DNA of 64,000 bases from Daejeonella sp. Lineage in GTDB: Bacteria > Bacteroidota > Bacteroidia > Sphingobacteriales > Sphingobacteriaceae. The notes beneath the pieces are model-generated. The model worked only from the letters and a program-made list of their open reading frames with translations. It searched no databases and was not told the origin of the DNA. Shown here in pieces: positions 13,131-60,884 of the stretch. Each line of letters begins with the position of its first letter. Positions within the stretch are counted from its first letter, which is position 1. The DNA is taken from the NCBI RefSeq assembly GCF_036405355.1, contig NZ_DASWXT010000068.1, positions 15,303-79,302 on the forward strand, written 5' to 3'. The position numbers and the translations under genes were made by a program.

Positions 13131-14192
13131 TTAATTTCTATAGAATGCACTATTCTCTTTCGTCAGAATATCAATAGGCATAAAATAAATCTTCTCTACG
13201 GGAGAAGAGAAAGCAAGGTGCTGATAGAGTGATATAAGTCCCCTGTAGCCCTGCTGCTTCGGTTTCTGACAAACTAAAAAGTCGATGATTCCTTTATCCA
13301 TGTACTCAATATTCTCCTTCAAAAAATCATATCCAATCAGAATCACATCCTTTTTTGAACTATCAATAAAATGAGCAACTTTAGAGACTCTGGAATTAGT
13401 TACAAAAACGATCCTGATATCATTATGTTCAGTAAAAATATTGCTCAAATACTTTTCAATTGATTTAAGATCGGTATCTCTTATATCAATTTTCAAAATA
13501 TTATCTGGCTTTTTATGCTTGTCAAAATAAGCCCTGAATCCTTCTTCCTTTTTTAAAAGATGATGATGATTATCGATCTCCCTAGAAATATTTACTATGA
13601 GTATTTTTTCACCGTTTTTAATCAGATAACTCACCAGGTGGGCAGCAAGATAGCCGCTGTGATACAGATTTGGACCGATATAACTCAGGCTACCTCCATT
13701 GGGAAGATCTGAATCAATCAGAACATAGGGAATATTTAATTGCCTGCATTTATCTGTAAACCTGACGGACTCTTCAATAAAAGAAGGTGCAAGTAAAATA
13801 CCATCGGGGTTACTTTCAAGAATAATCTTTGTTTGTTCAACAAAAGATTCAATCTTATTCTGATCGTAGAAATATTTATCAATGATAATTCCAAACTGCT
13901 TGATTTCTTTATCAGCCTGCTCTATTCCTTTCAATGGGGCATCCCAAAAACTGGTTTCCTTTGAAATCTCGGGTATCAGGGTAGCTAAACGAAGGATTTT
14001 TCTGGAGGCAAGCCTTTGCGCAAGCAGGTTAGGCTCATAATTTAATTCCTCAATTATGCCGAGAATCTTTTCCTTGGTTTGTTTGGATACCCCTTTTCTG
14101 TTATGAAGTACACGATCGACAGTAGCAATTGAAACATTAGCCCTTCTGGCAATTTCTTTTACTCCCGTAAGTTCATTAACTCGCTTTTTCAT
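13131..14192 (-). CDS. LacI-family transcriptional regulator
   Basis: HTH VKEIARRANVSIATVDRVLHNR, LNYEPN..A hinge, sugar-binding domain; start taken at MKKRV. Confidence 0.93.
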   Translation of the reverse strand: MKKRVNELTGVKEIARRANVSIATVDRVLHNRKGVSKQTKEKILGIIEELNYEPNLLAQRLASRKILRLATLIPEISKETSFWDAPLKGIEQADKEIKQFGIIIDKYFYDQNKIESFVEQTKIILESNPDGILLAPSFIEESVRFTDKCRQLNIPYVLIDSDLPNGGSLSYIGPNLYHSGYLAAHLVSYLIKNGEKILIVNISREIDNHHHLLKKEEGFRAYFDKHKKPDNILKIDIRDTDLKSIEKYLSNIFTEHNDIRIVFVTNSRVSKVAHFIDSSKKDVILIGYDFLKENIEYMDKGIIDFLVCQKPKQQGYRGLISLYQHLAFSSPVEKIYFMPIDILTKENSAFYRN

Positions 14193-14298
14193 AACAAATT
14201 TCAAAAATGTTTTTTAGTGTATCACTTACACAATAATAACTTTTATCCCCGGCTTTTCAAATCAAATTATTGGAAACATTTCATTTTATTAATATATT

Positions 14299-26177: not shown

Positions 26178-27680
26178 TTAATAAACAGAGGAAGATTTCA
26201 ATTTATTCAGGGTGTAACATATCAGTTTATTGTTCAGCGAATCACCCGTTGAAGTTTTAATATCTCCCAAATTCAATTCATAAACGTAACCAGGCTTTAG
26301 GCTTGCCAGAGTCAGTGATACCTTCTTTCGATCATTAGAAATTTTGATATCGGTAACAGGAACATTTTGAATATCAAACTGATCAGAACCATATTTACTT
26401 TGGTACTTATAATAGTAGTGCCGAAACTTGAAATTTTCAGGATTTGTAGCAACCGATACATCCAGCGGCTCCGTAAAGGTCAGATCAAAGCCTTTTTCAG
26501 TCAGATTCATACTATAGATATCAGCAGGTGTTTTACCTGTAAAAACTATCCGTTGAATACCCTGGTCACCGAGCCATCCATGAGAGTTTTGACCAATCCA
26601 TAAACTGCCATCCGGGGCAAATACCAATCTGTTATTCCCTTTACGAAGGCCGTTTCCATCAAGAAAAGGAATACATGCACCTTGTAATTCACCCCCAACC
26701 CGCTCAAGCATTACTCTAACAATCCTTTCCTTATTCATCTCACCGATGATCAACTGTCCAGTGAAAGGGCCAAATTTACCTGAGGTATTATCGCAGACAG
26801 GCTGAGTTGGTGAGTTTGCAATAATACCATGCGGAAATAAGACAGCTCCTCTGGTTCGCATGCTATCCAAAACCGGTATTGGTAATAAAAATGGATTACC
26901 TCTATTCCACCCCTTTTGCCAAACCAGACTTCCGGGGTGACCATAAAACTTTCCTTCCTGTACGTGATGCAAGGGACTGGTACCAATCCAGTCACCCTGG
27001 TTATCAGTTGCAAACAGATTACCTTCAAGATCAAAACCAATTCCGTTTGGAGAACGGAAACCAGATGCAAAAGGTCGCAAAATACCATCCTTGCCTAACT
27101 TCATCATCCATCCACGATAAGGTAAATTCGAAAACATCTGCCCTTTACTGCCACTCTCACGACCAAGGGGATTGATTTGACCACGAACTTCAGCTCTGAT
27201 GTTTCCCCCGCCAGAAGAAGAATTCAGGGCGATAAACAGATTACCGTCCTTATCCTTAACCGGACCGTAGTTGAATTCATGGTAATTACCCGAAAGTCCG
27301 AAATCATCCGTAACCTTTTCATACAGATCCGCCACCCCATCCCCATCCGTATCTTTAACCCTTGTTAATTCGGGACGTTGCATTATTAATAATTCAGAAT
27401 TACTGACTACAAGAATCCCTAATGGATCATGCAGGCCTTCAGCGAACAATTTCCATTCTTTTGTTATGGTATTGTAGGTCATTACCTCTCCTCTGGTAAA
27501 ACACGCAACCAGGCGGCCATCGGGCAAAAATTCAACAGCACCGGTCTCACTTGTTAGTCCATCTGGCATTTTGATGGTTTCAACCCTGTAAGATTTATTT
27601 GTTATCTGGGCAAGAAGAGAGTCCAGGCAGGTAAAAACCAACAGTCCTGTCATGAAAATGGAAATCACTTTATACTTCAT
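26178..27680 (-). CDS. Secreted sorbosone/PQQ-dehydrogenase-like beta-propeller, no heme motif
   Basis: FAEGLH.PLG, D.DGDG.AD, NYHEF.YG, GFRSPNG, TDNQGDW; no CxxCH. Confidence 0.72.
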   Translation of the reverse strand: MKYKVISIFMTGLLVFTCLDSLLAQITNKSYRVETIKMPDGLTSETGAVEFLPDGRLVACFTRGEVMTYNTITKEWKLFAEGLHDPLGILVVSNSELLIMQRPELTRVKDTDGDGVADLYEKVTDDFGLSGNYHEFNYGPVKDKDGNLFIALNSSSGGGNIRAEVRGQINPLGRESGSKGQMFSNLPYRGWMMKLGKDGILRPFASGFRSPNGIGFDLEGNLFATDNQGDWIGTSPLHHVQEGKFYGHPGSLVWQKGWNRGNPFLLPIPVLDSMRTRGAVLFPHGIIANSPTQPVCDNTSGKFGPFTGQLIIGEMNKERIVRVMLERVGGELQGACIPFLDGNGLRKGNNRLVFAPDGSLWIGQNSHGWLGDQGIQRIVFTGKTPADIYSMNLTEKGFDLTFTEPLDVSVATNPENFKFRHYYYKYQSKYGSDQFDIQNVPVTDIKISNDRKKVSLTLASLKPGYVYELNLGDIKTSTGDSLNNKLICYTLNKLKSSSVY

Positions 27681-28825
27681 AACATTCCCCCTTCCTTCAT
27701 AGTCATTGTAATGCTGAACTTTCTGGCCTCTTTGGGTGTTAATCTTAAGCTATTCCCTTCCCATGACCCGGCTGAGGCCTTATATTTAACCCCATCAGAT
27801 TGATCGGTGTTGAACCATACAGTATTTTTAACATCCGGAATGCTAAAAGTCCTGATTAGTCCCTGGCCATCAACATTTGGTAGAATCAGCTCATAAACAT
27901 CAATTCCGTTTATTGTATAGTGAAATTCAGGATAGCGGTTAATGAGTTTATATCCTTTGTAATCTAATTTTGGAGTTTTGTTATCCGCACTAAATGATAA
28001 TGGAAAATCTGTTTTATCCCTAAAAAATACATTTCCAACAACTTTTGCTGATACATCGCCTTTACCTTTCCAAAGCTCAGAATTATCGAGGAAGCCACCA
28101 CTCCATGCAAAACGCAACTTACAGGTACCAGCATCCCAGCAGTAGGATAAATCACCAGGGAGACTAACTGCAATTGCCGCAGGACTCGCCCCATCAATAA
28201 AAACACGGTAAATATATGGTGATACGGGGGTGTAGGGATGTAATGTTTTGATTTTTACAGCCTGATCCTTGACCTGATGGTTAGTATGCTGAGTACCCGA
28301 CAAAGAATTATCTCCGGCTCTTCGGTTTGGAGGAATATTAGGATCATCCTTTAGTTCAGGCATTCGTCCATCTGAGCTAACATACATTGCACCAAACATG
28401 ATAAAGCCATGACCCGGAAGGGTACATACATAAGGGTACACTCCTTCCTGTTTAGGTGCTGTAAAACTCAGTGTTCTGAACTGATTGGGATTGACGACAG
28501 GGATTGACCACAAAACAGATGAGGAAATTGGAATATAGTCCAATTCCGGACCTTTTTGACCTAATTTAAGTGCCTCATTTACAACATCAAGCCTTGCTCC
28601 TGGCTTTGTGATGAGAAGATTATGACTCATGTCATCACTGTTACTGAAAATCAGGTTTAATTTTTCGCCTGGCTTAACATTAAACCTTACCAGATCGAAT
28701 TGAAGGCCAACTAGTACATCAATTTTTATGGTTCTTATTGTATCTGCATTATTCTGCGCATACAGTTGTACAATTGACAGAAGGGCCAGCATCAAGGAAA
28801 ATATCTTTTTATCAGACCTCATCAA
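27677..28825 (-). CDS. Azurin/auracyanin-like cupredoxin fused to a C-terminal beta domain
   Basis: Type-1 Cu ligands SHN...YVCTLPGHGFIM; signal peptide. Confidence 0.85.
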   Translation of the reverse strand: MMRSDKKIFSLMLALLSIVQLYAQNNADTIRTIKIDVLVGLQFDLVRFNVKPGEKLNLIFSNSDDMSHNLLITKPGARLDVVNEALKLGQKGPELDYIPISSSVLWSIPVVNPNQFRTLSFTAPKQEGVYPYVCTLPGHGFIMFGAMYVSSDGRMPELKDDPNIPPNRRAGDNSLSGTQHTNHQVKDQAVKIKTLHPYTPVSPYIYRVFIDGASPAAIAVSLPGDLSYCWDAGTCKLRFAWSGGFLDNSELWKGKGDVSAKVVGNVFFRDKTDFPLSFSADNKTPKLDYKGYKLINRYPEFHYTINGIDVYELILPNVDGQGLIRTFSIPDVKNTVWFNTDQSDGVKYKASAGSWEGNSLRLTPKEARKFSITMTMKEGGML

Positions 28826-36236: not shown

Positions 36237-37235
36237 TTATGAAAGTTTGAATAATTTTTGGGCATTCTCAAACAGGATTTTCCTTTCGATCGCTTTATTT
36301 GGAGCTAATTTACGGATAGCAGGTATGATATTAGCCCCAAGACAGGATTTTCCGGTACCCGATGAGTCAGAGCAGTCACTTCCAAAAAGTAATTTATCCT
36401 GATGACGTTCTAAAAATCCGCGGGCATGATCTTCATCTCTGGTCAGCGATCCTAATCCGGAACCTGCTGAAAAATCACCGAACATATTTGGATATTCTGT
36501 AAGCAGGCGATCTGTAAGTCCGCCCCTGGTGACATTACCTTTTGGATAAAGAATATTCTGATCGATGTGATTCTTATCTATATCAGCCCACCAGGTTTGT
36601 GCATGACCAATAAAATTCACTTTTGGGTATTTCTTCAGCATAGTGTGAAAACGTTCAATGCCTCTGTTATACATATTATACTGCCAATGCATCAGAACGG
36701 GAACATTATAAGACTGAGCCAGTTCATAAATATTTTGCATCGCCGGAGAATCGCAATCGAGTCCGAATTTGAGTTCCCCGATAACAGGAGCACCAAGCTT
36801 CAGATATTTTTCAATTTCCTGTACTGCACCCGGCATATCCGGAACTTCATTTGCACCGAAAATAAACTCATCAGAATGAGCTTTTGCAAATTGATAGCAT
36901 ATTTCATTACCAGTGGCTTTAGCCTGCAGTCCGTTGCTATAACCATAATAGGTTGAGCCATAACTAAGCGGACGACCTGCAGGCAATAGAATTGTTTTAG
37001 TCACTCCCATTGCACGCTGATGAGGTATCAGCAAATCATTTGATCTTCCACTGTAATCTGTATGCTGGTGTATATCAATAATTGGCTCTGCAGCATTTCT
37101 AAGATCCAAAACTGCATTCTGATCCAGAGTATTTGCAATCAAGGAAGGAACAAATCCCATAGTTAGGGCAGCACCAAGTCCTACCATTGAATTTTTGATA
37201 ATAAATTCTCGTCTTGAATATTCTTTTTTAAGCAT
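36237..37235 (-). CDS. Tat-exported amidohydrolase
   Basis: YSRREFII; IDIHQH, IGELKF, LMHW, IGHAQ, LFGSD. Confidence 0.85.
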   Translation of the reverse strand: MLKKEYSRREFIIKNSMVGLGAALTMGFVPSLIANTLDQNAVLDLRNAAEPIIDIHQHTDYSGRSNDLLIPHQRAMGVTKTILLPAGRPLSYGSTYYGYSNGLQAKATGNEICYQFAKAHSDEFIFGANEVPDMPGAVQEIEKYLKLGAPVIGELKFGLDCDSPAMQNIYELAQSYNVPVLMHWQYNMYNRGIERFHTMLKKYPKVNFIGHAQTWWADIDKNHIDQNILYPKGNVTRGGLTDRLLTEYPNMFGDFSAGSGLGSLTRDEDHARGFLERHQDKLLFGSDCSDSSGTGKSCLGANIIPAIRKLAPNKAIERKILFENAQKLFKLS

Positions 37236-37252: not shown

Positions 37253-38338
37253 TTATTTAAATTCAGTATATCTGGGTGTATGGCCCAGTATTTTATCAAT
37301 AAAAGCATAGGCTTCTTTACGGCTTTCGAGAGGAAAATCGTGTTCATCGTCAGGGTAGCGTACCTGCAGTTTATCTAATGAATTGAGGTTCCGGTATATC
37401 GGCTCTACCAATGCAATTCCTGCCTGAACACCTTTATAATCAAAATTGGCATCCCTGCTTGGAGAAACTGAAAAGAATGCCCTTGGAGCTATTGCTGCAA
37501 TCATAAGATTAAAGTCAAAAGGAACCTTTTTATTTTCCAGATTATACTTTGTTCTTAACAATGGCATATAGCGGGTTTGAGCCCAGGGACCAAGTCTTCC
37601 ACCATACTTCTTTTCAGCCTCGGCTCCAATATTGTAAAAATCAAGTTGTGTCCATCCGCAACTGCTAACAGCAACTTTTATGCGCTCATCCATTGCAGCC
37701 AGGAATATAGAATTATGTCCACCAAGAGAATGTCCTAACACACCAATATTTTCTGCATCCACATCAGCCCGGCTTTGAAGCAAATCAATACAACGCATGT
37801 GATTAAAAATACCTTTCATTGTACCTGATTTATAACGATCCGTATCAAAATTATAATCTTCAGTATCACCAAAGCTTGGGAAATCAGGAGCAATTACAAT
37901 ATATCCCCGCTGAGCAAGTTCCCTAGCATGGGAGCGGTTAGCTTTATTTCCCTGTCCATCAACAGCCTTTCTACCTAAAGGGTCAGTCTCATGTAAAACC
38001 AGCATTGCCGGTAATTTTTGGGGAGTACCGGTCTGTTCCGGAACATACAGATATAAAGGAAGAACCTCATTGTTTTCCACTGTGAAAAGTATATTATACC
38101 GAATGAAACCAGATTCCTTAACACTGTCAATAACCTGAATATCAGAACGTTTTATAGCAGTTCTCTTAGGTAAATTACCCATTACCTTTTGCATATTCTC
38201 TAATACTTCCTTTCTGTATTTTTGATGATCCCCCTGAACAGTATTTTCCTGAGCAATTGCTAAGGCAGGAAAAAGTAAAAAGAGAATGATAAAAATTGGT
38301 CTTGTACCTGCAATTTGACGGCTTTTCGGCTTTATCAT
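37253..38338 (-). CDS. Secreted alpha/beta hydrolase (esterase)
   Basis: GHSLGG nucleophile elbow, D and H (HDFP) of the triad. Confidence 0.85.
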   Translation of the reverse strand: MIKPKSRQIAGTRPIFIILFLLFPALAIAQENTVQGDHQKYRKEVLENMQKVMGNLPKRTAIKRSDIQVIDSVKESGFIRYNILFTVENNEVLPLYLYVPEQTGTPQKLPAMLVLHETDPLGRKAVDGQGNKANRSHARELAQRGYIVIAPDFPSFGDTEDYNFDTDRYKSGTMKGIFNHMRCIDLLQSRADVDAENIGVLGHSLGGHNSIFLAAMDERIKVAVSSCGWTQLDFYNIGAEAEKKYGGRLGPWAQTRYMPLLRTKYNLENKKVPFDFNLMIAAIAPRAFFSVSPSRDANFDYKGVQAGIALVEPIYRNLNSLDKLQVRYPDDEHDFPLESRKEAYAFIDKILGHTPRYTEFK

Positions 38339-38387
38339 GGGATGGGAATATTTTTAATAAATATATAATCAAAAAATCAAAAACGAA

Positions 38388-39488
38388 TTACTTTACAGGT
38401 GCATAAAGTGGTGTATGTCCAAGAGTTCTATCTAAAAAGCCATAAACCTCTTTGCGATTTTCAACCGGAAAATCATGACCAGCATCCGGATAACGTACCT
38501 GTAACAAATCCGCTGCTACCAAACTATAGTAAACTTTTTCAGCCAGTGAAATACCTGCTCTCACACCATTTACATCAAAGTTTGCATCCTTGAGAGGTGA
38601 TACAGAGAAAAATGCTCGTGGAGCAATAGCTGTTATAATATCATCAAAATTGAAGGGTATCAGTTTCGCATCCAGTTTATATTTTGTGCGTATAAGCGGC
38701 ATGTACCTTGTTTGTGCCCAGGGACCAAGTCTGCCACCATATTTTTTTGATCCTTCATCACCTATATTATAATATTCAAACTGGGTCCAGCCACTGCTCG
38801 ATACTGCAACCTTTAATCGGGTATCAAAAGCGGCAACAAACATTGCGTTATGTCCACCAAGAGAATGACCTATGACACCGATATTTTCAGAATCAACATC
38901 TGCTCTGCTCTGCAGCAGATCAATACAACGCATATGATTAAATATTGCCTGCATCGTGGCTGATTCATATCTGTCGGTATCAAAATTATGATCCTTCAGA
39001 TCACCAAAACTTGGGTAATCAGGGGCAATAACAACATAGCCGCGTTCTGCAAGTTCACGGGCATGTGCCCGGTTTGGTAGTGGACCCTGACCATCTACAA
39101 CACCTTTTCCGAGTACACTTGTTCCATGCAAAACAAGCATAGCGGGGATTCTTTGAATACTACCTCTTTGTTTTGGCACATAGAGGTAAACAGGTAATCG
39201 TTCATTTACTGCGACTGCGAAACTTAGTGTATACCGGGTAAATCTATCCTCCTTTACACTGTCAATGATCTTAATATCAAAGTCAGGTAAATTTGAACGA
39301 TCAGGAAGTTTACCCATCACTTTTTCCATACGCAGTAAGATCTGCTGCCTTTTCTTTTCATGAGAAGCAGAACTTTTAACTGGCAGATCCCTTATTTCAT
39401 TTACATAATTCAATTCCTGCCAAATATGAGTAGGCAAAAAATTATAAGTTAAAAACAGGATCAAAAGAAATTTTGAGATCAAAGTCAT
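38388..39488 (-). CDS. Secreted alpha/beta hydrolase, paralogue of 37253 gene
   Basis: GHSLGG, HDFP. Start moved to MTLISK (39488) because the track start lies inside the terminator. Confidence 0.85.
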   Translation of the reverse strand: MTLISKFLLILFLTYNFLPTHIWQELNYVNEIRDLPVKSSASHEKKRQQILLRMEKVMGKLPDRSNLPDFDIKIIDSVKEDRFTRYTLSFAVAVNERLPVYLYVPKQRGSIQRIPAMLVLHGTSVLGKGVVDGQGPLPNRAHARELAERGYVVIAPDYPSFGDLKDHNFDTDRYESATMQAIFNHMRCIDLLQSRADVDSENIGVIGHSLGGHNAMFVAAFDTRLKVAVSSSGWTQFEYYNIGDEGSKKYGGRLGPWAQTRYMPLIRTKYKLDAKLIPFNFDDIITAIAPRAFFSVSPLKDANFDVNGVRAGISLAEKVYYSLVAADLLQVRYPDAGHDFPVENRKEVYGFLDRTLGHTPLYAPVK

Positions 39489-39519
39489 ATCCTCTGATTT
39501 TAAATTTTCGGAATATACT

Positions 39520-39562
39520 ATAAAAATAAAAGGACTAACCCGCATTTACGGATTAATCCTTT
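39520..39562 (-). terminator. Rho-independent terminator after susC-susD-lipoprotein
   Basis: AAAGGATTAATCCG-TAAATG-CGGGTTAGTCCTTT followed by TATTTTTA. Confidence 0.75.
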
Positions 39563-46032: not shown

Positions 46033-47385
46033 TTAAGACTTATTAAAAGGATCAGCGATTTTTATAAGATCGGTTCGTGTGAAATCATTTTCTGTGACCC
46101 TTGCAAGTGCGTAAACTTCACCCCTCTGCCCTACAGCAATAGAATTTACATACAATGGGCGATCCCCATTGGGATAAAAGATTGGGCCATGATCCTGATA
46201 TATTCCCTCTGGTATATTATAAGTTACCAAATGCAGATTTTCAAGGCCTTTTGCTGCACCTTTAGCAATCTCAGTTTGACCTGTGACACGCTTTCCGTCA
46301 ATATATACAGGACCGCCTGTCAGGTAATAAATAGTCTTACCATCGGGTCCAAGTTGAAAGCCAAGATAGCCATAACTAAACTGATCGAACATACCGCTTT
46401 TAGCTGAAGGCTCTGAAGTAATACGTCTGACAAGCTCTATTTTAGATTTTTTAGGATCGAACTTAAATAAATATCCTGAATTCCCATGAACTCCATAGGC
46501 TAAACCCTCAGGTTTATACCAGAAAACTTTTCTCCAGTTATAACCCATACTTCCAGGTCTGGTTGGATCGTATTTACCAAAATAATCAAGCCTGAGGTTT
46601 ACGTTTTCAAGTTTATTGATGCGCCCTTCTTCAGGGTTATAGCTAAAAATATCACCCTCTGAAGTAGAAAAATGTACAGTTCCATCAGAAGGGTCTACCA
46701 CAAGAGAACGGCATAATGAACGAAAATCATCACCTGGTTCCCCTCCTTCACCATTTCCTGATGTACGACCCAGGTCTTTTAATTCATTTTTTTCAATATC
46801 ATAATGTATAAAATTACCTTTGGGCCAGGAAATACCAAAAATATGTCCACGGTCACGATCCATTGTCATCGAAACCATACCTTCTCCATTAGGTACCAAA
46901 GCAAGGTTTTCGAACTCTCTTGTTTGCATGTCATAAGAAAGAATATGTCCACCCGGGTATAATTTATACCCGGAAGGAGGATTAACCGGAAGCCGGTCCA
47001 TTCCATTGATTAGTTCATAATAACCTACATGAGTTGAGAAGTAAAGCTTCCCATTCCTTTCAAAGAACCTTGCATGACTTTTCCCCTGCGGAATGAACAT
47101 CTGATCTTTTTCGCCACAGATTTCAGTAAGATCTCCAAGAAACTCTGTCTTATCAGTCCTGGGATTATACAGGTACATTTTACCTCCAACATGGATCTGG
47201 TCTGATGATAATATATAATAAATATTCCCATCACTTGCAGCTGATAATGCATTGTAAGTATCATGGGCCTCTTGAAATCCCGAATTATAAGTAGTGGCGG
47301 TAAGATGATTTACTTCATCCGTTTCATTAATATAAGTTTCAGCTTTTAATTGATTCAATTCAACAATTCCGTCTAATTTGTCCAT
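46033..47385 (-). CDS. Hypothetical beta-propeller protein, no clear signal peptide
   Basis: Repeated short-strand blades (MYLYNP, LSYDM, HYDI, FSYNP, FKFDP, VTYNI). Confidence 0.65.
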   Translation of the reverse strand: MDKLDGIVELNQLKAETYINETDEVNHLTATTYNSGFQEAHDTYNALSAASDGNIYYILSSDQIHVGGKMYLYNPRTDKTEFLGDLTEICGEKDQMFIPQGKSHARFFERNGKLYFSTHVGYYELINGMDRLPVNPPSGYKLYPGGHILSYDMQTREFENLALVPNGEGMVSMTMDRDRGHIFGISWPKGNFIHYDIEKNELKDLGRTSGNGEGGEPGDDFRSLCRSLVVDPSDGTVHFSTSEGDIFSYNPEEGRINKLENVNLRLDYFGKYDPTRPGSMGYNWRKVFWYKPEGLAYGVHGNSGYLFKFDPKKSKIELVRRITSEPSAKSGMFDQFSYGYLGFQLGPDGKTIYYLTGGPVYIDGKRVTGQTEIAKGAAKGLENLHLVTYNIPEGIYQDHGPIFYPNGDRPLYVNSIAVGQRGEVYALARVTENDFTRTDLIKIADPFNKS

Positions 47386-47448: not shown

Positions 47449-48837
47449 TTATTTTTCCAATGATTTTTTTACTGATTCTGCACTAGCCTGTATCTTGCTG
47501 ATTGCATTAGCAATTGAATCCATGTCTTCCCTGCTGCCAAGAAGAAGGTTCTGAGTAAACCATACCATTTCTGTACATAAAAGATCATTCTCAGGGCACT
47601 GATTTCGCTCCATATATTTATCATAATCGAGCATATCCTTATGGTACATCCTTTTAAAATTCTTTGATGCGAAAGCTTCTTTAAGAAATTCCTGCTTGTT
47701 CAAAGGAGTATAACCACCAGAACAAGGCACTCCTTCTGCACGCAAAGCCTGTAAAAATGAATTTCTGGATAAACCTTTAAAGTCCTCTTTCTTATATCTG
47801 AATGAAAACAAATGGAATGAAACCCGGGTTGCACAATCATATAATTTATAAGGAACAATCCCGGGAATATCCTTAATCTTTGACTTCAAATACTTCGCAT
47901 TCTCTTCACGTACAGTCGTTTGTGCATCAAGTCTTTGCAGCTGAGCTAAACCAATAGCAGCCTGATATTCAGTAATACGAACCTTGGTGCCAATCCTTAT
48001 GCTCCCTGCATTAAAAGTTCCTACCGCAGTACCAAAGGGTAAGCCAAGATTCTGAAAAGAAACACAGCGGTCCATAAAGGCTCCGTCATTACTAATAATT
48101 GCACCACCTTCACCAATTGGAATATTTTTTGAGTTTTGAAAACTAAAACAACCCGCATTGCCGATTGTTCCAACTTTTTGGTTATTGACCTCAGTTAATG
48201 GAGCCTGGCAGGCATCTTCAACCACAAACAGATTGTGCTTTTTTGCAATTTCCATTATTCTTGGCATATCTGCTGGCATTCCTAAAATATGGACCGGCAA
48301 AATTGCTTTTGTACGTGGTGTTATCTTTGCTTCTATTTTTGCAGGATCAATCTGATATGTTTCCGGATCAATATCCACAAATACCGGCATAGCTCCATTC
48401 ATAAGAATAGCCTGCACGGTTGATATAAATGTATATGGCGGAACAAGTACTTCATCACCGCCTTTAATATCCAGTTGATTCAACGCCACAATCAAAGCAT
48501 TGGTTCCATTGTTAACAACCAAACAACGCTTAGCACCATTGACATTTGCCCAGGCGGCTTCAAACTCGTTGACTACTCCCGCACGCGACCAAACACCGCT
48601 TCTCAGGACTTCAAGAACGCGCTTTTCATCCGTTTCTGGTACCCAGATAGGCCATTTGATCCATTTGGCTTTATCCCATGCTGAAGGGCCGCCTAAAATC
48701 GCTGGTCTCGCTGCATTGTTTAAATCCCCTGCTAGCAGAGAAGGTGTCATACCCATCGTCAGCACAGCTCCCACTCCAGCCAGAGAGCTCTGCTTTAAAA
48801 ACTTACGTCTCGATGAATCAGTATTCTTATTTTTCAT
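47449..48837 (-). CDS. Second Tat-exported DegT-family PLP aminotransferase
   Basis: SSRRKFLK; NGTNAL, VVEDACQA, CFSFQNSKNIPIGEGG. Confidence 0.9.
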   Translation of the reverse strand: MKNKNTDSSRRKFLKQSSLAGVGAVLTMGMTPSLLAGDLNNAARPAILGGPSAWDKAKWIKWPIWVPETDEKRVLEVLRSGVWSRAGVVNEFEAAWANVNGAKRCLVVNNGTNALIVALNQLDIKGGDEVLVPPYTFISTVQAILMNGAMPVFVDIDPETYQIDPAKIEAKITPRTKAILPVHILGMPADMPRIMEIAKKHNLFVVEDACQAPLTEVNNQKVGTIGNAGCFSFQNSKNIPIGEGGAIISNDGAFMDRCVSFQNLGLPFGTAVGTFNAGSIRIGTKVRITEYQAAIGLAQLQRLDAQTTVREENAKYLKSKIKDIPGIVPYKLYDCATRVSFHLFSFRYKKEDFKGLSRNSFLQALRAEGVPCSGGYTPLNKQEFLKEAFASKNFKRMYHKDMLDYDKYMERNQCPENDLLCTEMVWFTQNLLLGSREDMDSIANAISKIQASAESVKKSLEK

Positions 48838-49079: not shown

Positions 49080-50282
49080 TTACCTGATCACAACCCCAAT
49101 CATATCAATAGAAATTCCCGCCTCAGCCTTTCCGACATCCTTTACCATAGCTTTCGAGGCGGCTGGCGGACGAAGCGGATCATAATATTTAGGACGAATT
49201 TCATTTAATTTAGCACTATGAGCATCATTGCTAACATAATAGGTTGCTTTTACAAGATGCCTGAAATCACTGCCCGTATTTTTCAATATGGTACCCATTA
49301 GATTGAAGACAGATGCCAATTCAGAATCAGCATTACCGGAAATTTGTCCGTATAATCCTGATATATAAACCTTTTGACCATAGTTAATCCGGGTAACTTT
49401 ACAGTAAACGGGTGAAGCTGTCATTCCGGGAGGAGTAATAAAATCAAGCTGCTGATTTGATTTAGATGCTGTATTGGGAGATGAAGCAATTAATTCTATT
49501 TCAATTACCGGATCTTTACTTGTCCATTCAACATTGACCATGGGTGGTATAGTACCCCCCTTAAAAAATTTGGCAAACTCCTCCTCTACTATTTTAAGGT
49601 CAGACATTGGCCTGACGAAGGATTTAATCTGAACAATATCCTTTTTCTCTAATCCCAATGAAACAAGAGTAGTCTGAAGCTGCTCCAGGGTTCCGCGTGT
49701 TGCTTCTGCAAGTTCACCTTTAACCGCCTGACCTGAAACATAAACAACAGGACCTGCAGGTAAAATTGACGCCCGGGCGACAGCCGGAGCTGAGGATAAA
49801 TTCCCGGGCATAAAATAACTAACACTCTTTGTATTGATTTTAGCTGTAACTGCAATTGCGTCCATTGAAATCAAAGCGTCGGTATGAGAAAGATCCCCGG
49901 CAACAAAACTCAGAGCAGGACACTTCCCTGATTTAAACCGCTTATATATCTGCTCCTGAACTGTAGAGATCAGACTTGAATTCCTGATATAGATATTAAG
50001 TTTAACGATCTGATCTGGTTTTGACCCAGCCTGTTTCAAAGCAGAAATAATATTTAAAAAAACCTGGTTGGTCTGCGCATTGATATCACCAGATCCAACA
50101 ATACTGCCTGATCTATCCACAGGCAGGAATTGTGTGGTATGAACTAGCGGAACATCATCAACAACTACTGCATCCGAAGCTCCCGGAAAATTCGCAGATC
50201 CTGAATATTGAATGTGTTGCCCTTTCTGAGCAAAACCGGAATAACCCAGAAATAAGAAAAAAATGCAGATCAGAGCTTTCAT
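49080..50282 (-). CDS. Secreted protein of three fused RidA/YjgF/L-PSP domains
   Basis: Signal peptide; three repeats (IVKLNIY; VYVSGQ...IVQIKSF...VIEIE; VYISG...LVKATYY). Confidence 0.85.
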   Translation of the reverse strand: MKALICIFFLFLGYSGFAQKGQHIQYSGSANFPGASDAVVVDDVPLVHTTQFLPVDRSGSIVGSGDINAQTNQVFLNIISALKQAGSKPDQIVKLNIYIRNSSLISTVQEQIYKRFKSGKCPALSFVAGDLSHTDALISMDAIAVTAKINTKSVSYFMPGNLSSAPAVARASILPAGPVVYVSGQAVKGELAEATRGTLEQLQTTLVSLGLEKKDIVQIKSFVRPMSDLKIVEEEFAKFFKGGTIPPMVNVEWTSKDPVIEIELIASSPNTASKSNQQLDFITPPGMTASPVYCKVTRINYGQKVYISGLYGQISGNADSELASVFNLMGTILKNTGSDFRHLVKATYYVSNDAHSAKLNEIRPKYYDPLRPPAASKAMVKDVGKAEAGISIDMIGVVIR

Positions 50283-50311: not shown

Positions 50312-50417
50312 GCCAGAAATATCCTGCTATATTTAAAATGAACACGTAACTTCATTATTCTTTATTCATTGTTCCAGGAAATTATTTTCAAGAAGCAGGT
50401 ACTAGTCTTAATGACCA

Positions 50418-50495
50418 TTCCCTATTTCCTATTTCCTATTTCCTATTTCCTATTTCCTATTCCCTATTCCCTATTTCCTATTCCCTATTCCCCTA
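50418..50495 (-). repeat. Heptamer SSR (TAGGRAA) x10 beginning at the HiPIP stop codon
   Basis: Ten TT(T/C)CCTA units at 50418-50487 plus an 8-nt unit containing the TAG stop. Confidence 0.95.
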
Positions 50496-50876
50496 ACTAT
50501 TAACCGGTGCCCAATAAGCACAATATCCCTCAGAGCGAACTGGCCCTTTAAACAACATACAACCACCGCAAGGCTTATCCTTCGCCGGCGGAAGGTAAAG
50601 TGCGCAATTACTGCAATGGCTATCCGGTATTGGTGTTTTGTTTACATATGCAAGCTTTTTACGTTTTGCAACTTCTTCGGCACTTACTCCTGTTAGGTCA
50701 TCGCAAGGATTTTTTTGTGCTGGCTGTGGAGTTTTGGGCTGCTGATTCGAATCCCCTTCTTTAGCCATGCTGCTAACTGAACTGCCGGCAACCAATATTC
50801 CTGTTCCTATTGCAACTGAACCAGCAAGTATATACTTACCAATGAACCTTCTTCTTGAATACTTTTGTTCTTCCAT
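50493..50876 (-). CDS. Tat-exported high-potential iron-sulfur protein (HiPIP)
   Basis: YSRRRFIG; CSNC...C..C.LFKG.V..EGYCAYW. Confidence 0.88.
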   Translation of the reverse strand: MEEQKYSRRRFIGKYILAGSVAIGTGILVAGSSVSSMAKEGDSNQQPKTPQPAQKNPCDDLTGVSAEEVAKRKKLAYVNKTPIPDSHCSNCALYLPPAKDKPCGGCMLFKGPVRSEGYCAYWAPVNS

Positions 50877-50917
50877 CTTTCTATTATTTACCGGTCAATT
50901 TAAAATTCAGTATATCC

Positions 50918-53020
50918 TTAATTTTTTCTAAGCAATTGAAATCCTGCTTTCACTTCCTCCATTGAGCCTGTATTTAATTGTCCTGCAAGCTCTTTTGTAG
51001 ACTCATTTTTATTTAATCCTGCTTTAAGCCCTTTTAAGGCAGCTAGCTGGACATTTGCTCCGGATAATGCTCCGGATGAAAGTGTATTCAAATACGCTGA
51101 ATACTGTTCCTTATTATATCTGGCAGCAATAATATTTGACAAATCCTGAATAAAGCTGAGTTTCCAGCTTTCTTCACTGCTGAAGAATGTATTATCCTTC
51201 ATCAGTGAATTTAAAATTTCAACTGACGAACCTGCTTCAGAGCTTATAACTGCACTCCTGAACCAATCATTCTGTCCGTATTTTCTGATCACCTCAGCTA
51301 AAGCCTCAATCACCTTCTTTCCTTTAAACTGTCCCAGACTAAGTGCAGCTTGCATGGCAACCCGCTTAGATGGGTCATTAACCATTGGAATTAACAGTTT
51401 AACGGTTTTTGGATATCTTTCTGCAAGTATAATGCCATTTTCCCTAACACCAGGCTCAGAATCCAGCAGGGACTTTTTAACGATCTTTTCAGTAAGTGCA
51501 TTCAAACCTTCGAGCACGTAAAGTGCATGTAGTCTTGTTCTTGCATCCTGACTATTAGAAAACAATGAAATCACAGCAGGAATAACAGTTTTATCCTGAC
51601 GTTCAAGCAGCAAACGCTGGGCATTACTGCGATACCAGCCGTTCTTGTGCGACAGATAATCGACCAATTGAAGTCCGGTAGCGTTCTTCAAATCTACTTT
51701 TACTCCCTGGTATGTGCCATTTTCAGGCAGGAGTCGATAAATCCTACCCATATCACTACCCGCCATAAAATCCATTTCAGCTTTAAGATCATCGGGAATT
51801 GAAACCGGTGTTTCGATATGCTGTCTGTAATAATCAAGAATATATAAGTATCCGTCAGGGCCAACAGAGAATGTTACCGGTCGGAACCAGGTGTCAGTGG
51901 AATAAATAAATTCTCTGTTCTTTTCGGATTCGGCACGTTTTGCAACCAGAACCGGACTTGTTTCACTTGGACTTAAAATATCTCTGTGAATCAGACTACC
52001 GGAAACATCCGTTGTAAAAATATTGCCATAAAATTCCTGTGGCAGGGCATCACCATTATAAATAGTACCTCCGGATGCGCCTGTAAAGTGATCTTCTGCC
52101 CATTCTATCCGATTAAGATTCGCTTCTTTGAACATCCTGTTTCTACGGGCACTTCTTTCAGATCTCCAGTAAGCCGGCGGGATTTCCTGAAACATGATCT
52201 CTTCATGATCTGTTATAGTTACATTAAACTTACTGCTTGGCATGAATGCATGTCTGTGAGTATATCTCCAGGGAATTACTGCCTGCTGTAAGTGTATTGA
52301 ATTCTCTGTAAAGAAACGATGTCCCCAGTCGTCAATAGTTTGTCCGAACTGTCCCGGACCAGTCTCAAGTTCAAAAACATCACGGTCCAATCTGAAACGA
52401 AAATCTGCTCCTCTAACCTCAACAGGCGTCGCATCTGGCGATTTACTATAAATCACTTTACCACTCTGACCACGATTATTTGCATAAATCCAGTTATCGA
52501 TCCCCAATTTCAAACTGGTAACCTGAGCCTCAGAGTTATTCTGAAAAAATCCTGAGAACAAAATTTCCCTGATATCTGATTTTCCATCCCCATTGGTATC
52601 CTTCAGATAAAGAATATTGGGAGCGGCAGTCACGATAAGTCCGCCTTTCCATGGCAGCATACTGGTTGCTTCGGTTACATTTTCAGCAAATATGATCGAC
52701 TGATCAATTTTACCATCACCATCAGTATCTTTCAGTATCCGGATACGGCCATGACCCTTACCAGGTTCAACCTCATACGGATAATCAGGCATTTCAATCA
52801 CATAGGCATTTCCCTGTTCGTCAAATTCAAGTGATACCGGGTCAAAAACATGAGGTTCTGATGCAAATAAGGAAACTTTATAGCCTTTAGCCACATTAAG
52901 TTTCTTCATTGACTCCTCCGGACTTAATGGCCCGGGATAACGCTGAGCCATGCTGTTTCCTGCTAATAAAATAAATGGTAATAATAATATGGCTGAGCGG
53001 CCACTGAAATTAGTCTTCAT
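50918..53020 (-). CDS. PVC-type membrane-bound dehydrogenase-like protein (propeller + HEAT repeats) lacking the cytochrome c domain
   Basis: LFASEP...DPV...FDE.G, DTDGDGKID, GQFG..IDDWGHRF, WFRPV...GPDG.LYI.D.YR..IE; HEAT repeats; no CxxCH. Confidence 0.85.
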   Translation of the reverse strand: MKTNFSGRSAILLLPFILLAGNSMAQRYPGPLSPEESMKKLNVAKGYKVSLFASEPHVFDPVSLEFDEQGNAYVIEMPDYPYEVEPGKGHGRIRILKDTDGDGKIDQSIIFAENVTEATSMLPWKGGLIVTAAPNILYLKDTNGDGKSDIREILFSGFFQNNSEAQVTSLKLGIDNWIYANNRGQSGKVIYSKSPDATPVEVRGADFRFRLDRDVFELETGPGQFGQTIDDWGHRFFTENSIHLQQAVIPWRYTHRHAFMPSSKFNVTITDHEEIMFQEIPPAYWRSERSARRNRMFKEANLNRIEWAEDHFTGASGGTIYNGDALPQEFYGNIFTTDVSGSLIHRDILSPSETSPVLVAKRAESEKNREFIYSTDTWFRPVTFSVGPDGYLYILDYYRQHIETPVSIPDDLKAEMDFMAGSDMGRIYRLLPENGTYQGVKVDLKNATGLQLVDYLSHKNGWYRSNAQRLLLERQDKTVIPAVISLFSNSQDARTRLHALYVLEGLNALTEKIVKKSLLDSEPGVRENGIILAERYPKTVKLLIPMVNDPSKRVAMQAALSLGQFKGKKVIEALAEVIRKYGQNDWFRSAVISSEAGSSVEILNSLMKDNTFFSSEESWKLSFIQDLSNIIAARYNKEQYSAYLNTLSSGALSGANVQLAALKGLKAGLNKNESTKELAGQLNTGSMEEVKAGFQLLRKN

Positions 53021-53205: not shown

Positions 53206-53219
53206 CGGTAACGTACCCG
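53206..53219. promoter_or_regulatory. Operator copy 8
   Basis: CGGTAACGTACCCG upstream of the dehydrogenase-HiPIP operon. Confidence 0.8.
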
Positions 53220-53326: not shown

Positions 53327-55822
53327 TCATTGAATGGATTTACTGAACACAGTATAACGCACTGGTTGTGAATATTCATTATGAGGAAAGGTATAGAAAC
53401 GGATCTTTCCGTCATTATCCATAGAAAAACCCGGATCATTTTCCAATTGAACAATATTTCCCGAAACATTTCTGGCCGGAAAGTACAAACTGGATCCATC
53501 CGGGAAATCCAGGCGAATATGGGTGACATCAGGTTGAGCAGAATCCAATTCAAGATTATGCTTTCCTCCTGAGTTTTCGGTTCCTTTTAATATGCCCGAC
53601 TTTGCTCTCCCCTTCGCATATTTCCAACCGGCACTCGAAATAAGACTAATTTCATTCCCATTCAGACTAATCCTGTCCTGAATATTTTTACCATTCAATT
53701 CATAATCTATAAGATAGCTATCACCATCTGCACGGACTGATTTTATCCATGGTTTGCCTAGAAAAGGTTCGTGAATGGCAACAAAACTCGATTTGCTACC
53801 GGTATGTCTTTGCATAATTCCAAGGCGCATAAAATTATCAAGTTTATTATCATCCTCAGCGGCGAGTCTGACCGATGGGGCACGAAAACTGAATATCTCA
53901 GCATCTTTTTGGGGTATATGATGAGTGCGCAGCCCAGAATTTTGATAATTCCAGGTTGCTGTCCATGGTTTGCTTGTTATCCCAGCCTTAATATCTTTCA
54001 TATAGGAATAAGCATGGATTTTTTTTCCGATAATATCTGAATCATACTGGTTCATGGGTATAGCAGTCCCTCCCCACTCAGGTACCAGTGTTTTAACAGC
54101 CCGATCCAATGAAATACTGGTTACCAGTTTTCCCTCTTCTTCGCACATGCCATGCAGAAACCAGTCATGTGTCTCCCCTCCTTCCACATCAAAACGGTCA
54201 ATCACATAGTCCTTGCCTTCAGCCGCATGAACAAATATCAGCCTTCTCCTGTATTGGGTGGCCGTAGAATAAGCCGGAGACGCATCAAGATCAATAACCT
54301 TAACCTGAGGATTCTGATCATCATAATACATGAGCCGGCCTGTTACAGGTTTTAATAAAGTTCCCTGGTCCTGGGCTTTCTGATCTATAACAACGGTATT
54401 GTGTGATGCTGTATGTAATGTCCATCCGCGATACTTGGAATGTGTATAACCGATATCTGAAAGCAGCTCAGAACCATTTGCAAACAAGATTATGGAAGCA
54501 TTGTCATAATGCGAATGCCCGTAATTACCACTCCAGTTTACATTGAGCATGGTTTGATCCTTTCCGGTACCGGCAGCTAAAGCTGCATTCCCGAGCGATG
54601 GCCATAGGCGCGAAACAGCAAAACCTTCAGTTTTTACGGGTTTAGCTCTGTTAGCCCAGGTATCATTAAGAGGGAGTTTATGACCATTTGGAAATACTGC
54701 CTGCAGGCTGACATTTAAAGCACTTTTATAAAAAGGCATTGCATTAGTCAGATCAAGATTTTCAAAACGCTCCCCCTTCCAGTCCGCAGGATCTGTATAA
54801 CCCCTGGCTGCTTGAGCAACGCTCTCCAGTCCTCCAATCGTCTGGTCATGATAAGAAACAGTCCCCTCTTTCCACCAGCCATCCGCAAAAAACCCGAGTT
54901 TTAAAAATTCCCTGAAGCGATTCACTCCATCGTGAACAATGTCGGGCCTGTTAAGTATCCGACCCACTCTCACCATATCTCTGTACATACCGGGCGACAT
55001 ATTGGTATAAATTTCAGGGTTAGCCGCGGTAAACTCATAACCCAAAATCAACAGATCTTTTACGATTCTTTGGTCTGTGTCCTTACCTATTTGTGAATCC
55101 ATTCTGTTCCAGTCATAAGCCCCTTTCTGCAAATTTTCATACGCTATGGCAATCTGTACCGGAATATCCCCATAAGCCCACCAGTTCCATTTGGCCCCCC
55201 GGTAAGGAACGAGCCCTTCATAAGGCCATTTCTGATTTGCAGGAAAAAACTTCTTGGGAGCACTTGGATAATCGTATCGTATTGCATAATCAGGGAATAA
55301 CTGTGCAAAACGACCCGCAATCATTGCCGCCCTGTCGCCATAAGCAGGATCTTTTGTCTGGGACCATATCTGAGACAATTGTACCGCCATTTGCTGAATC
55401 CATTTCCAGCGATCAAACCAGGCATGTGCCTCATAGAAATATTGAGTACCCTTGGCGTCCTGAAAATAACGGTAAACCTGTTTTGCGCCACTTGGTGCTA
55501 TGATTACTTTTTCGCCATTATGGGGATATTTTTCATTTGGGAAAGTCATGCTGCAGAACTTACATTTTACCTGATCCCCCATTCCAGGCTCCCAGTTCAA
55601 TATTCCCATCTCCTGGGCGCCTCCCTTACAATTCGGGCAACCGATAAAGAAAATACCTGATCCGGGTGGCACCATATTCTTCACATCAGTCAGAGACATT
55701 TTCATCAAAGGTTCAACTGATGCAATTTGAGCTTCTATATTTTCAGATTTCTGCTGTCCATAAACAAATGCGGGCATAAGAAATGCAAGATATAGGAATG
55801 CTATAAATAATTTATTAATCAT
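53327..55822 (-). CDS. Secreted heparinase II/III-family lyase-like protein with N-terminal CxxC-CxxC module
   Basis: WWKEGTVSYH, GHSHYD...I.LF...ELLSDIGY, W...T.SHNTVVID; CPNC and CKFC. Confidence 0.8.
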   Translation of the reverse strand: MINKLFIAFLYLAFLMPAFVYGQQKSENIEAQIASVEPLMKMSLTDVKNMVPPGSGIFFIGCPNCKGGAQEMGILNWEPGMGDQVKCKFCSMTFPNEKYPHNGEKVIIAPSGAKQVYRYFQDAKGTQYFYEAHAWFDRWKWIQQMAVQLSQIWSQTKDPAYGDRAAMIAGRFAQLFPDYAIRYDYPSAPKKFFPANQKWPYEGLVPYRGAKWNWWAYGDIPVQIAIAYENLQKGAYDWNRMDSQIGKDTDQRIVKDLLILGYEFTAANPEIYTNMSPGMYRDMVRVGRILNRPDIVHDGVNRFREFLKLGFFADGWWKEGTVSYHDQTIGGLESVAQAARGYTDPADWKGERFENLDLTNAMPFYKSALNVSLQAVFPNGHKLPLNDTWANRAKPVKTEGFAVSRLWPSLGNAALAAGTGKDQTMLNVNWSGNYGHSHYDNASIILFANGSELLSDIGYTHSKYRGWTLHTASHNTVVIDQKAQDQGTLLKPVTGRLMYYDDQNPQVKVIDLDASPAYSTATQYRRRLIFVHAAEGKDYVIDRFDVEGGETHDWFLHGMCEEEGKLVTSISLDRAVKTLVPEWGGTAIPMNQYDSDIIGKKIHAYSYMKDIKAGITSKPWTATWNYQNSGLRTHHIPQKDAEIFSFRAPSVRLAAEDDNKLDNFMRLGIMQRHTGSKSSFVAIHEPFLGKPWIKSVRADGDSYLIDYELNGKNIQDRISLNGNEISLISSAGWKYAKGRAKSGILKGTENSGGKHNLELDSAQPDVTHIRLDFPDGSSLYFPARNVSGNIVQLENDPGFSMDNDGKIRFYTFPHNEYSQPVRYTVFSKSIQ

Positions 55823-55854: not shown

Positions 55855-55868
55855 CGTGTACGTACCCG
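55855..55868. promoter_or_regulatory. Operator copy 9
   Basis: CGTGTACGTACCCG upstream of the heparinase-like gene. Confidence 0.8.
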
Positions 55869-60407: not shown

Positions 60408-60530
60408 ATAAATAAATATAGCTTATGTCAATAAATTGCGGGCTAATTTTGATAAATAGAATCGTGCAAAGATTCTTTAGATAATCTATTGAGAAAATTT
60501 TGTTCCAGGGATGTGTAAATAAAAAAAGAA

Positions 60531-60596
60531 CCACAAACCTCCCGATAACAATCAGGAACTCTAAGCATCCCAATTACCATCGGGGTAGCAATAACC
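60531..60596 (-). pseudogene. Truncated, highly decayed tRNA-His copy (copy 3) with two palindrome insertions
   Basis: + strand CCACAAACC [TCCCGATAACAATCAGGA] ACTCTAAGCA [TCCCAATTACCATCGGGG] TAGCAATAACC aligns to the 5' half of the tRNA. Confidence 0.75.
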
Positions 60597-60597
60597 T

Positions 60598-60627
60598 AAA
60601 AAAGCCTTAGTTTTAACTAAGACCTTT
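60598..60627 (-). terminator. Hairpin/terminator after tRNA copy 2
   Basis: AAAGGTCTTAGT-TAAA-ACTAAGGCTTTT, T-run. Confidence 0.65.
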
Positions 60628-60634
60628 CTATTAA

Positions 60635-60752
60635 GGGTGGCTGATGGGGCTCGTCCCGATAGCTATCGGGACCACGACCCTTGGCACCACAAACCTCCCG
60701 ATAATTATCGCGAAATCTCACCATCCCTATAACTATCTGAAGAGCTACAGCC
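60635..60752 (-). pseudogene. Near full-length tRNA-His copy (copy 2) with three 18-bp palindrome insertions
   Basis: Collinear with the tRNA; inserts at 60654-60671, 60696-60713, 60724-60741. Confidence 0.92.
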
Positions 60753-60769
60753 TTAAAAATTCTTGGAAC

Positions 60770-60801
60770 AAAAAAAAAGCAGCTCATTTCTGAACTGCTT
60801 T
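60770..60801 (-). terminator. Terminator after tRNA-His
   Basis: AAAGCAGTTCA-GAAA-TGAGCTGCTTT-T run. Confidence 0.85.
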
Positions 60802-60809
60802 CCAAATCG

Positions 60810-60884
60810 GGTGGCTGATGGGGCTCGAACCCACGACCCTCGGCACCACAAACCAATACTCTAACCAACTGAGCTACAGCCACC
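60810..60884 (-). tRNA. tRNA-His (GTG), CCA not encoded
   Basis: G-1, acceptor GTGGCTG/CAGCCAC, D-arm GCTC..GAGT, loop TTGTGGT, T-loop TTCGAGC, C discriminator. Confidence 0.95.

Follow-up and report, generated by a model that had tools for sequence, protein, structure and literature searches.

The question raised by this locus is what could take over from a heme domain in a protein whose family is named for that domain. In a 64,000-nucleotide stretch of a Daejeonella sp. contig (NZ_DASWXT010000068.1), referred to here as the window, a gene for a 700-amino acid protein with a DUF7133 propeller and HEAT repeats is followed by a gene for a HiPIP (high-potential iron-sulfur protein). We consider it fairly probable that the short DUF7133 enzyme and the HiPIP form a periplasmic redox pair, the HiPIP having replaced the fused cytochrome c domain of longer homologues as electron partner. 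This proposal draws on the loss of a domain, gene linkage followed in both directions, a single origin of the short forms, the marks of a HiPIP in the smaller protein, signals for the export of both proteins and an operator that the genes share, all of which we observed. The uncharacterized enzyme family and the carrier family are each known separately; what is new is their conserved combination. Full-text literature searches, which covered DUF7133, TIGR02604 and HiPIPs in polysaccharide-utilization loci (PULs), found no prior description of the pairing or of the function of DUF7133. The nearest protein matches of the window carry Pedobacter or Daejeonella names, and the two genes and their parts are arranged as follows.

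50918..53020, minus strand: 700-amino acid DUF7133 propeller and HEAT solenoid protein (Pfam, NCBIfam, AlphaFold2 model)
52946..53020, minus strand: predicted Sec signal peptide of that protein, residues 1–25, ending NSMA|Q (read from the sequence)
51722..52924, minus strand: beta-propeller domain, residues 33–433, with two DxDGDGxxD loops (PF23500; all-beta in the model; Foldseek)
50924..51676, minus strand: HEAT-repeat alpha-solenoid, residues 449–699 (Pfam, model, alignment to long forms)
50877..50917, minus strand: 41-bp intergenic gap with no coding remnant (tblastn)
50493..50876, minus strand: 127-amino acid HiPIP precursor (Pfam, Protein Data Bank (PDB) match, alignment)
50763..50876, minus strand: twin-arginine translocation (Tat) signal peptide of the HiPIP, residues 1–38, with motif S7-R-R-R-F11 and predicted cleavage after S-M-A38 (read from the sequence)
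50496..50708, minus strand: HiPIP core, residues 57–127 (alignment to PDB 3H31)

The larger protein was assigned to Pfam DUF7133 (PF23500) over residues 33–433 (E 3e-115; 386 bits against a cut-off of 27), which covers its propeller domain, and HEAT_2 (PF13646) matched residues 520–592 (E 9e-13). NCBIfam TIGR02604, which labels its products "PVC-type heme-binding CxxCH protein," scored 271 bits against a cut-off of 122. An AlphaFold2 model (pLDDT 94.5, pTM 0.92) consisted of a beta-propeller followed by an alpha-solenoid. The first-pass annotation, made from the sequence alone, had described a propeller and HEAT protein without CxxCH, and this description held; the protein in fact contains no cysteine at all, which makes the name of the family a misnomer where the short clade is concerned. 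Because it has no cysteine, it cannot hold heme c, an iron-sulfur cluster, or a cysteine-dependent cofactor or cross-link, and any cofactor must be non-covalent or a metal. Comparison of N-termini revealed that many orthologues of the enzyme carry a lipobox cysteine at the signal-peptide cleavage position.

Alignment with long homologues showed that the 700-amino acid protein stops ∼300 residues short of their end. Its TAA stop codon occupies 50918–50920 and the next ATG is at 50876, which leaves the gap of 41 bp. We searched the 64-kb window by tblastn with the C-terminal ∼300 residues of two long homologues and found no remnant of a cytochrome c domain (best E 0.2), in agreement with the earlier statement that the gap holds no frameshifted remnant. 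No c-type cytochrome gene was found anywhere in the window, and CxxCH occurs in none of its real genes.

The 127-amino acid open reading frame (ORF) that follows had been called a Tat-exported HiPIP, and several lines of evidence upheld this call. It scored 28.3 bits with Pfam HIPIP (PF01355; cut-off 22), and its best solved relative was a chain of PDB 3H31, which it matched across the whole core (E 9e-20). We take 3H31 as the Rhodothermus marinus respiratory HiPIP; the database entry gave the molecule name only. A hydrophobic stretch follows the twin-arginine motif. In an alignment of 16 diverse orthologues, R8, R9, and F11 of this motif were invariant or nearly so, and all six cysteines were invariant. 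The predicted cluster ligands, C88-x2-C91-x14-C106-x12-C119, lie in a core of ∼70 residues and align with the cysteines of 3H31; their spacing points to C106, not C103, as the ligand. C58 and C103, which correspond to the additional cysteine pair in 3H31, are likely a disulfide pair, because the joint loss of their equivalents in the HiPIP of one locus (L014, 14036–14416), which lacks both C58 and C103 (the first cysteine of CGGC) and keeps the four predicted ligands, fits such a bond. Judged by its Pfam score above the cut-off, the match to 3H31, the six invariant cysteines and the RR motif, the window HiPIP is genuine. In many HiPIP orthologues, the Tat signal is followed by a lipobox cysteine; as this residue is also found on many of the enzymes, both partners would be anchored within one compartment. 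A tandem repeat of the heptanucleotide ATTTCCT (10.4 copies, 50417..50489) lies immediately 3′ of the stop codon of the HiPIP gene, and a similar stretch is present at 34781–34822. Length variants of the repeat and many unrelated loose ends were seen in metatranscriptome and metagenome contigs, so that the repeat is widespread or variable.

To place the short form within its family, we searched a whole protein library without a word index, which returned 13,271 cluster representatives at E≤1e-3, and inspected the best 150. The CxxCH motif was present in 113 of the 150 and in 110 of the 115 with at least 900 residues, which bears out the statement in the first-pass annotation that many homologues end in a CxxCH cytochrome c domain. 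The five closest representatives (47–51% identity, 701–713 residues) all lack it. Most of the other CxxCH-less entries among the best 150 end in mid-repeat or with frameshift-like tails, which suggests that they are fragments. One library representative of 998 residues (P0274) is a DUF7133-HEAT protein without CxxCH that has, as judged by eye, an amidohydrolase-like C-terminus (…FGTHFPLFYPES…); the cytochrome domain may here have been replaced in a third way.

We surveyed the 80 best genomic loci, with one genome per species and about 9–10 kb of flanking sequence, and scanned all ORFs with a hidden Markov model (HMM) that was built from the HiPIP matches. The 46 long forms (930–1260 residues) each contained one CxxCH, located about 121 (range 119–135) residues from the C-terminus, and the Pfam architecture of the long relatives was DUF7133 + HEAT_2 + Cytochrom_C. 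The HMM scan detected no HiPIP gene in the flanks of any long form (0/46). By comparison, a HiPIP gene lay downstream on the same strand in 24 of the 29 complete short CxxCH-less forms, directly adjacent in 22 and with one gene between in 2. Three short forms were set aside because the contig ends soon after the gene (L063, 79 bp; L019, 2.0 kb; L021, 1.3 kb), which brings the proportion to 24 of 26 judgeable cases. We weighed a 692-residue form from Bryobacterales without a HiPIP (L064), the only non-Bacteroidota case, as evidence to the contrary and dismissed it. In another frame downstream of it, residues 749–823 of a long homologue can be aligned, and on this alignment it is a disrupted (frameshifted) long form. 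In another locus (L073), the DUF7133 gene is frameshifted and the HiPIP gene still stands behind it.

The survey was also run in reverse. An independent collection of metagenome contigs was scanned with the alignment of 16 diverse HiPIP orthologues, and loci with at least 600 bp of upstream sequence were counted. A CxxCH-less DUF7133 gene was found upstream on the same strand in 62 of 65 such loci. One or two genes intervened in 5 of the 62, a ThuA-like gene in L116 and L124 and two genes in L106; L113 probably belongs to the ThuA-like type. This reverse linkage suggests that the HiPIP subfamily is dedicated to the short enzyme and is not a general carrier. Across Sphingobacteriia, Cytophagia, Chitinophagia, and Saprospiria, the HiPIP was the only invariant neighbor of the short enzyme; the heparinase-like, RidA, DegT, ceramidase-like, CE15-like, amidohydrolase, and ThuA-like genes vary from locus to locus. 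Short homologues that commonly lack a HiPIP would have spoken against the replacement, and the surveys gave the opposite result in both directions.

In a neighbor-joining tree of the shared region, the short forms all fell into a single Bacteroidota clade that spans these four classes; it branches from within the long forms, and its nearest neighbors are Acidobacteriota. The single clade indicates that the swap happened once, in an ancient lineage, and was kept, and that the anticorrelation did not arise repeatedly. The anticorrelation between a fused CxxCH and a neighboring HiPIP that the first-pass annotation had proposed to look for therefore exists in the counts, although it stems from one clade and a single event. 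Linkage retained after a single event is still strong evidence for function.

The pair also shares an operator. The first-pass annotation had placed the genes under the eighth of a series of operators, and this operator is real: the palindrome CGKKWACGTAMMCG occurs at nine sites in the window, all intergenic, against 0.09 expected.

53206..53219, no strand: 14-bp palindromic operator CGGTAACGTACCCG, eighth of nine, 186 bp upstream of the DUF7133 ATG at 53020
11531, 14299, 19895, 34675, 45736, 45960, 48987, 53206, 55855, no strand: the nine 14-bp sites of the palindrome
13131..14204, minus strand: LacI-family regulator (domain annotation)

Through the nine palindromes and the LacI-family regulator, operons for glycan degradation over ∼45 kb appear to be joined in a single regulon. 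The 41-bp junction is covered by freshwater metatranscriptome contigs (X4, 50542–51187; X2, 50791–50926), which is consistent with co-transcription of the enzyme and the HiPIP; carry-over of DNA is another possible source of these contigs. A scan for sigma-70 promoters and intrinsic terminators between 48.8 and 56 kb gave counts at the level of shuffled sequence, and the sigma-70 model may not suit Bacteroidota, whose promoters differ from it.

Taken together, these observations suggest the following scheme. The 700-amino acid protein would be a periplasmic redox enzyme with a catalytic beta-propeller on a HEAT-repeat scaffold. The ancestor of the Bacteroidota clade would have lost the C-terminal ∼300 residues, comprising extra helical repeats and a mono-heme cytochrome c domain, and a separate Tat-exported [4Fe-4S] HiPIP, often a lipoprotein, would have become its one-electron partner. 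Both genes would be co-regulated with the surrounding PUL through the LacI-type operator and probably co-transcribed. A glycan-derived substrate would be oxidized at the propeller, and the electrons would leave it singly to the HiPIP, which, in the manner of its R. marinus counterpart, would hand them to a terminal oxidase. The conditional parts of this scheme are the physical interaction of the partners, the direction of the electrons, the propeller's cofactor and the substrate. The claim of the first-pass annotation, that an iron-sulfur protein replaces the heme domain as acceptor in sugar oxidation, accordingly divides in two: comparative genomics strongly backs the replacement, whereas the electron direction and the sugar substrate are what we infer from it.

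The genes around the pair, and a second pair elsewhere in the window, bear on its possible role.

49080..50282, minus strand: 400-amino acid secreted protein with three RidA/L-PSP domains, the next gene downstream (domain search; locus comparison)
53327..55822, minus strand: 831-amino acid heparinase II/III-like protein, encoded upstream; the gene has a separate operator at 55855–55868 (domain search)
27677..28825, minus strand: 382-amino acid protein with an N-terminal azurin-type cupredoxin domain (C-x4-H-x3-M) and DUF6797 (domain search, ligand pattern)
26178..27680, minus strand: 500-amino acid DUF7133-like propeller that lacks cytochrome c; its gene and the cupredoxin gene overlap by 4 bp (sequence comparison)

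In two Pedobacter loci (L001 and L009, the latter from Pedobacter heparinus), the cupredoxin–propeller pair follows the HiPIP and RidA genes and is itself followed by four Amidohydro_2 genes. Relatives in the DUF7133 family are thus found with a fused heme c domain, a cupredoxin or a HiPIP. Such a pattern would be expected if the propeller needs an interchangeable one-electron partner, and this suggests that the redox partner is modular in the family.

The locus encodes SusC/SusD, a heparinase II/III-like protein, CE15-like esterases, a DUF1080 3-keto-disaccharide hydrolase, Gfo/Idh/MocA proteins, two DegT proteins, and the triple-RidA protein, and this gene content fits a uronate- or amino-sugar-containing glycan. 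The RidA gene is kept downstream of the HiPIP only in Sphingobacteriaceae-type loci. The two DegT/DnrJ-type pyridoxal phosphate enzymes (47449–48837 and 10076–11428, both minus strand) have twin-arginine signals (RRKFLK and TRRNFI). Together with the secreted triple-RidA protein, they suggest that an amino sugar may be transaminated or deaminated in the periplasm; both families are normally cytoplasmic, so that a periplasmic placement is unusual. The enzyme–HiPIP pair recurs across Bacteroidota classes in the company of neutral-ceramidase-like, CE15 glucuronoyl-esterase-like, Amidohydro_2, heparinase II/III, and ThuA-like genes (loci L011–L031, L106, L116, and L124). All of these accessory families except the ThuA-like one are present in the window (34819–36192, 36237–37235, and 37253–39545).

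We tentatively offer a broader reading, which we hold as a possibility well short of likely: the DUF7133-HEAT/HiPIP pair may be a "PUL-to-oxidase" shunt of aerobic Bacteroidota. A breakdown product of a glycan that contains uronate or amino sugars would be oxidized in the periplasm by a propeller oxidoreductase whose cofactor does not depend on cysteine, and a dedicated HiPIP, as protein or lipoprotein, would carry the electrons straight to a terminal oxidase and bypass the quinone pool. The cupredoxin-paired paralogue would be a second wire.

Several results weigh against the proposed redox pair. When the AlphaFold2 model was compared with the PDB by Foldseek, the luciferin-regenerating enzyme ranked first (E 1e-7), followed by glucose dehydrogenase 7CDY/7CGZ (E 1e-6) and the pyrroloquinoline quinone (PQQ)-dependent soluble glucose dehydrogenase (sGDH) 1C9U (E 2e-4), with sialidases lower. 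These are matches to generic six-bladed propellers (lactonase-like, PQQ glucose dehydrogenase, and sialidase) at TM-scores, normalized to target length, of 0.46–0.64, and the non-redox luciferin-regenerating enzyme outscores the PQQ enzymes 7CDY/7CGZ and 1C9U (TM 0.46–0.58). A propeller-only profile had no match among PDB sequences at E≤10 and thus no sequence-detectable tie to known oxidoreductases, so no catalytic residues can be transferred from a known enzyme. A Pfam search for GSDH membership of the 700-amino acid protein gave no match at E≤0.01, and neither PQQ ligands nor another redox cofactor site were identified in the propeller. Across 28 orthologous pairs, the net charge of the HiPIP core was set against that of the HEAT or propeller domain and revealed no consistent docking pattern. 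What is known of the short clade comes from sequence, and the only assayed member of the family, the cytochrome c-bearing Lac161_ORF7, was reported as a hydrolytic beta-galactosidase (PMC5342196). The linkage has true exceptions as well: the short enzyme of Dyadobacter sp. CY323 (L022) has no HiPIP within 10 kb downstream, and one HiPIP locus (L145) has no enzyme within 6 kb. The linkage also appears to go back to a single evolutionary event, so that it is conserved synteny with no repeated convergence, and as evidence this is weaker than convergence. Of the "dehydrogenase"–HiPIP pairing first proposed, the pairing stands, while "dehydrogenase," given the generic fold matches and the absence of a PDB sequence match, is an inherited annotation name; sugar oxidation is likewise a proposal. 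It is the partner proteins, and not the fold, that support redox chemistry.

These points leave room for other explanations. The HiPIP could donate electrons to the propeller, which would then act as a reductase or depend on O2, for instance through a metal center that must be primed by one electron before it can cleave glycans oxidatively; the cytochrome c domain, before its loss, would have been a donor as well. We regard this as unlikely. It is in its favor that the R. marinus HiPIP is reduced by alternative complex III (ACIII), so that a reduced HiPIP pool would exist (PMC5928083). Gene linkage is silent on the direction of electrons, and neither Foldseek nor the propeller profile fixes the cofactor of the propeller. 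The potentials of HiPIPs, about +50 to +450 mV, are high, though, which makes them poor reductants except for O2-linked or copper centers. No oxygenase-like motif was found, the 700-amino acid protein has no cysteine, and a C-terminal cytochrome c fused to a periplasmic propeller enzyme is typically an electron exit. That the propeller is instead a non-redox glycoside hydrolase or lyase like Lac161_ORF7, with the HiPIP or cytochrome c non-catalytic or just co-regulated, seems to us quite improbable. A TIGR02604 + HEAT + cytochrome c protein is indeed reported to hydrolyze lactose with a Km of 1.8 mM (PMC5342196), and the family has been handled as putative glycoside hydrolases (PMC7397252). 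Sialidase propellers are among the Foldseek matches, and the locus, a PUL, includes genes for SusC/SusD and lyase-like proteins. A hydrolase needs no fused heme domain, yet the long representatives retain one in 110 of 115 cases, and hydrolysis leaves unexplained the swap to another one-electron carrier that was kept adjacent across four Bacteroidota classes while the remaining neighbors changed. Lac161_ORF7 is presumably a distant relative at most, and oxidation followed by elimination could also look like net hydrolysis.

The adjacency of the two genes would be incidental if the HiPIP were a general respiratory shuttle that runs from ACIII to an oxidase, as in R. marinus; we give this very little weight. 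Its closest solved relative is indeed 3H31, presumably the R. marinus protein. A search with the 67-residue core of 3H31 for the genomic context of the R. marinus HiPIP gave three distant matches on contigs of less than 2 kb; two R. marinus-like HiPIP genes on short contigs have no visible adjoining DUF7133 gene. Set against this are the short enzyme upstream in 62 of 65 loci of the window's HiPIP subfamily, the PUL-specific LacI-type operator over the pair, which is ill-suited to a housekeeping carrier, and a locus in which no respiratory-complex gene lies nearby. A dedicated periplasmic redox pair of short enzyme and HiPIP thus remains the explanation that we favor.

Some features of the window concern neither gene of the pair. 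Three ORFs gave no Pfam match: 46033–47385 (minus strand, 450 residues), 14270–15931 (plus strand, 553 residues), and 11588–12988 (minus strand, 466 residues). The 450-residue ORF and the DegT gene stay in synteny across many loci, distant ones included (L015, L030, L048, and L124). Ahead of the gene for tRNA-His (60809–60883, minus strand), two or three degenerate direct repeats of ∼57–79 nucleotides resemble tRNA fragments (60530–60883).

DUF7133 proteins are very numerous (13,271 cluster representatives) and have no established function; one planctomycete genome was reported with 20 copies of the family (PMC7397252). The exchange of a heme domain for a HiPIP is strong independent evidence of one-electron redox chemistry in this family. 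The pair offers a simpler two-protein system for the discovery of substrate and cofactor, in that the enzyme is free of heme and cysteine and its partner is visible optically and by electron paramagnetic resonance. If the proposal is true, it would extend HiPIP biology from phototrophs, iron and sulfur oxidizers, and the R. marinus chain to polysaccharide use by soil and freshwater Bacteroidota, and would link glycan degradation directly to aerobic respiration.

Among known systems, the closest are the PVC-type CxxCH proteins (TIGR02604/DUF7133 + HEAT_2 + Cytochrom_C), of ∼1000 residues and abundant in Planctomycetota, Verrucomicrobiota, Acidobacteriota, and Bacteroidota. The window protein is homologous to these long forms in propeller and HEAT repeats over residues ∼15–675 (36–47% identity); it differs in lacking the last ∼300 residues, including cytochrome c, and all cysteines, and in being accompanied by a separate HiPIP gene. 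Lac161_ORF7 (GenBank AGW45552), from a metagenome, is like the window enzyme a member of the TIGR02604 + HEAT family, but it has the cytochrome c domain, comes from Verrucomicrobia, and has a reported activity that is hydrolytic. The PQQ sGDH enzymes (1C9U, 7CDY/7CGZ) resemble the window enzyme model as six-bladed-propeller-type matches (Foldseek E 1e-6 to 2e-4), and both are periplasmic; their sequences are unrelated to the window propeller.

On the carrier side, the first-pass annotation had named phototrophs and iron oxidizers as the best-known sources of HiPIPs. A HiPIP in a heterotroph has a precedent in aerobic respiration, since that of R. marinus is a soluble carrier of the ACIII/caa3 chain (PMC5928083). 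The window HiPIP shares its cysteine pattern with 3H31, including the extra N-terminal cysteine and the CGGC pair; unlike 3H31, its subfamily stands behind a DUF7133 enzyme in a PUL regulon, includes many Tat lipoproteins and shows no link to ACIII in the locus. Interchange of carriers is documented for the thiosulfate dehydrogenase TsdA, which has a HiPIP partner in A. vinosum and a mono-heme cytochrome c partner in C. jejuni (PMC6879331). TsdA is a di-heme enzyme of unrelated fold and chemistry that acts on sulfur compounds, with no documented fused-to-separate domain swap, and nevertheless provides a precedent for HiPIP/cytochrome c interchange within one periplasmic oxidoreductase family. 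Methylamine dehydrogenase, finally, is a periplasmic propeller-containing dehydrogenase co-encoded with a dedicated one-electron carrier, amicyanin. It has its tryptophan tryptophylquinone (TTQ) cofactor on a separate small subunit, shares no homology with the window enzyme and uses a cupredoxin as carrier; the HiPIP pair of the window resembles it in organization, and so does the cupredoxin pair.

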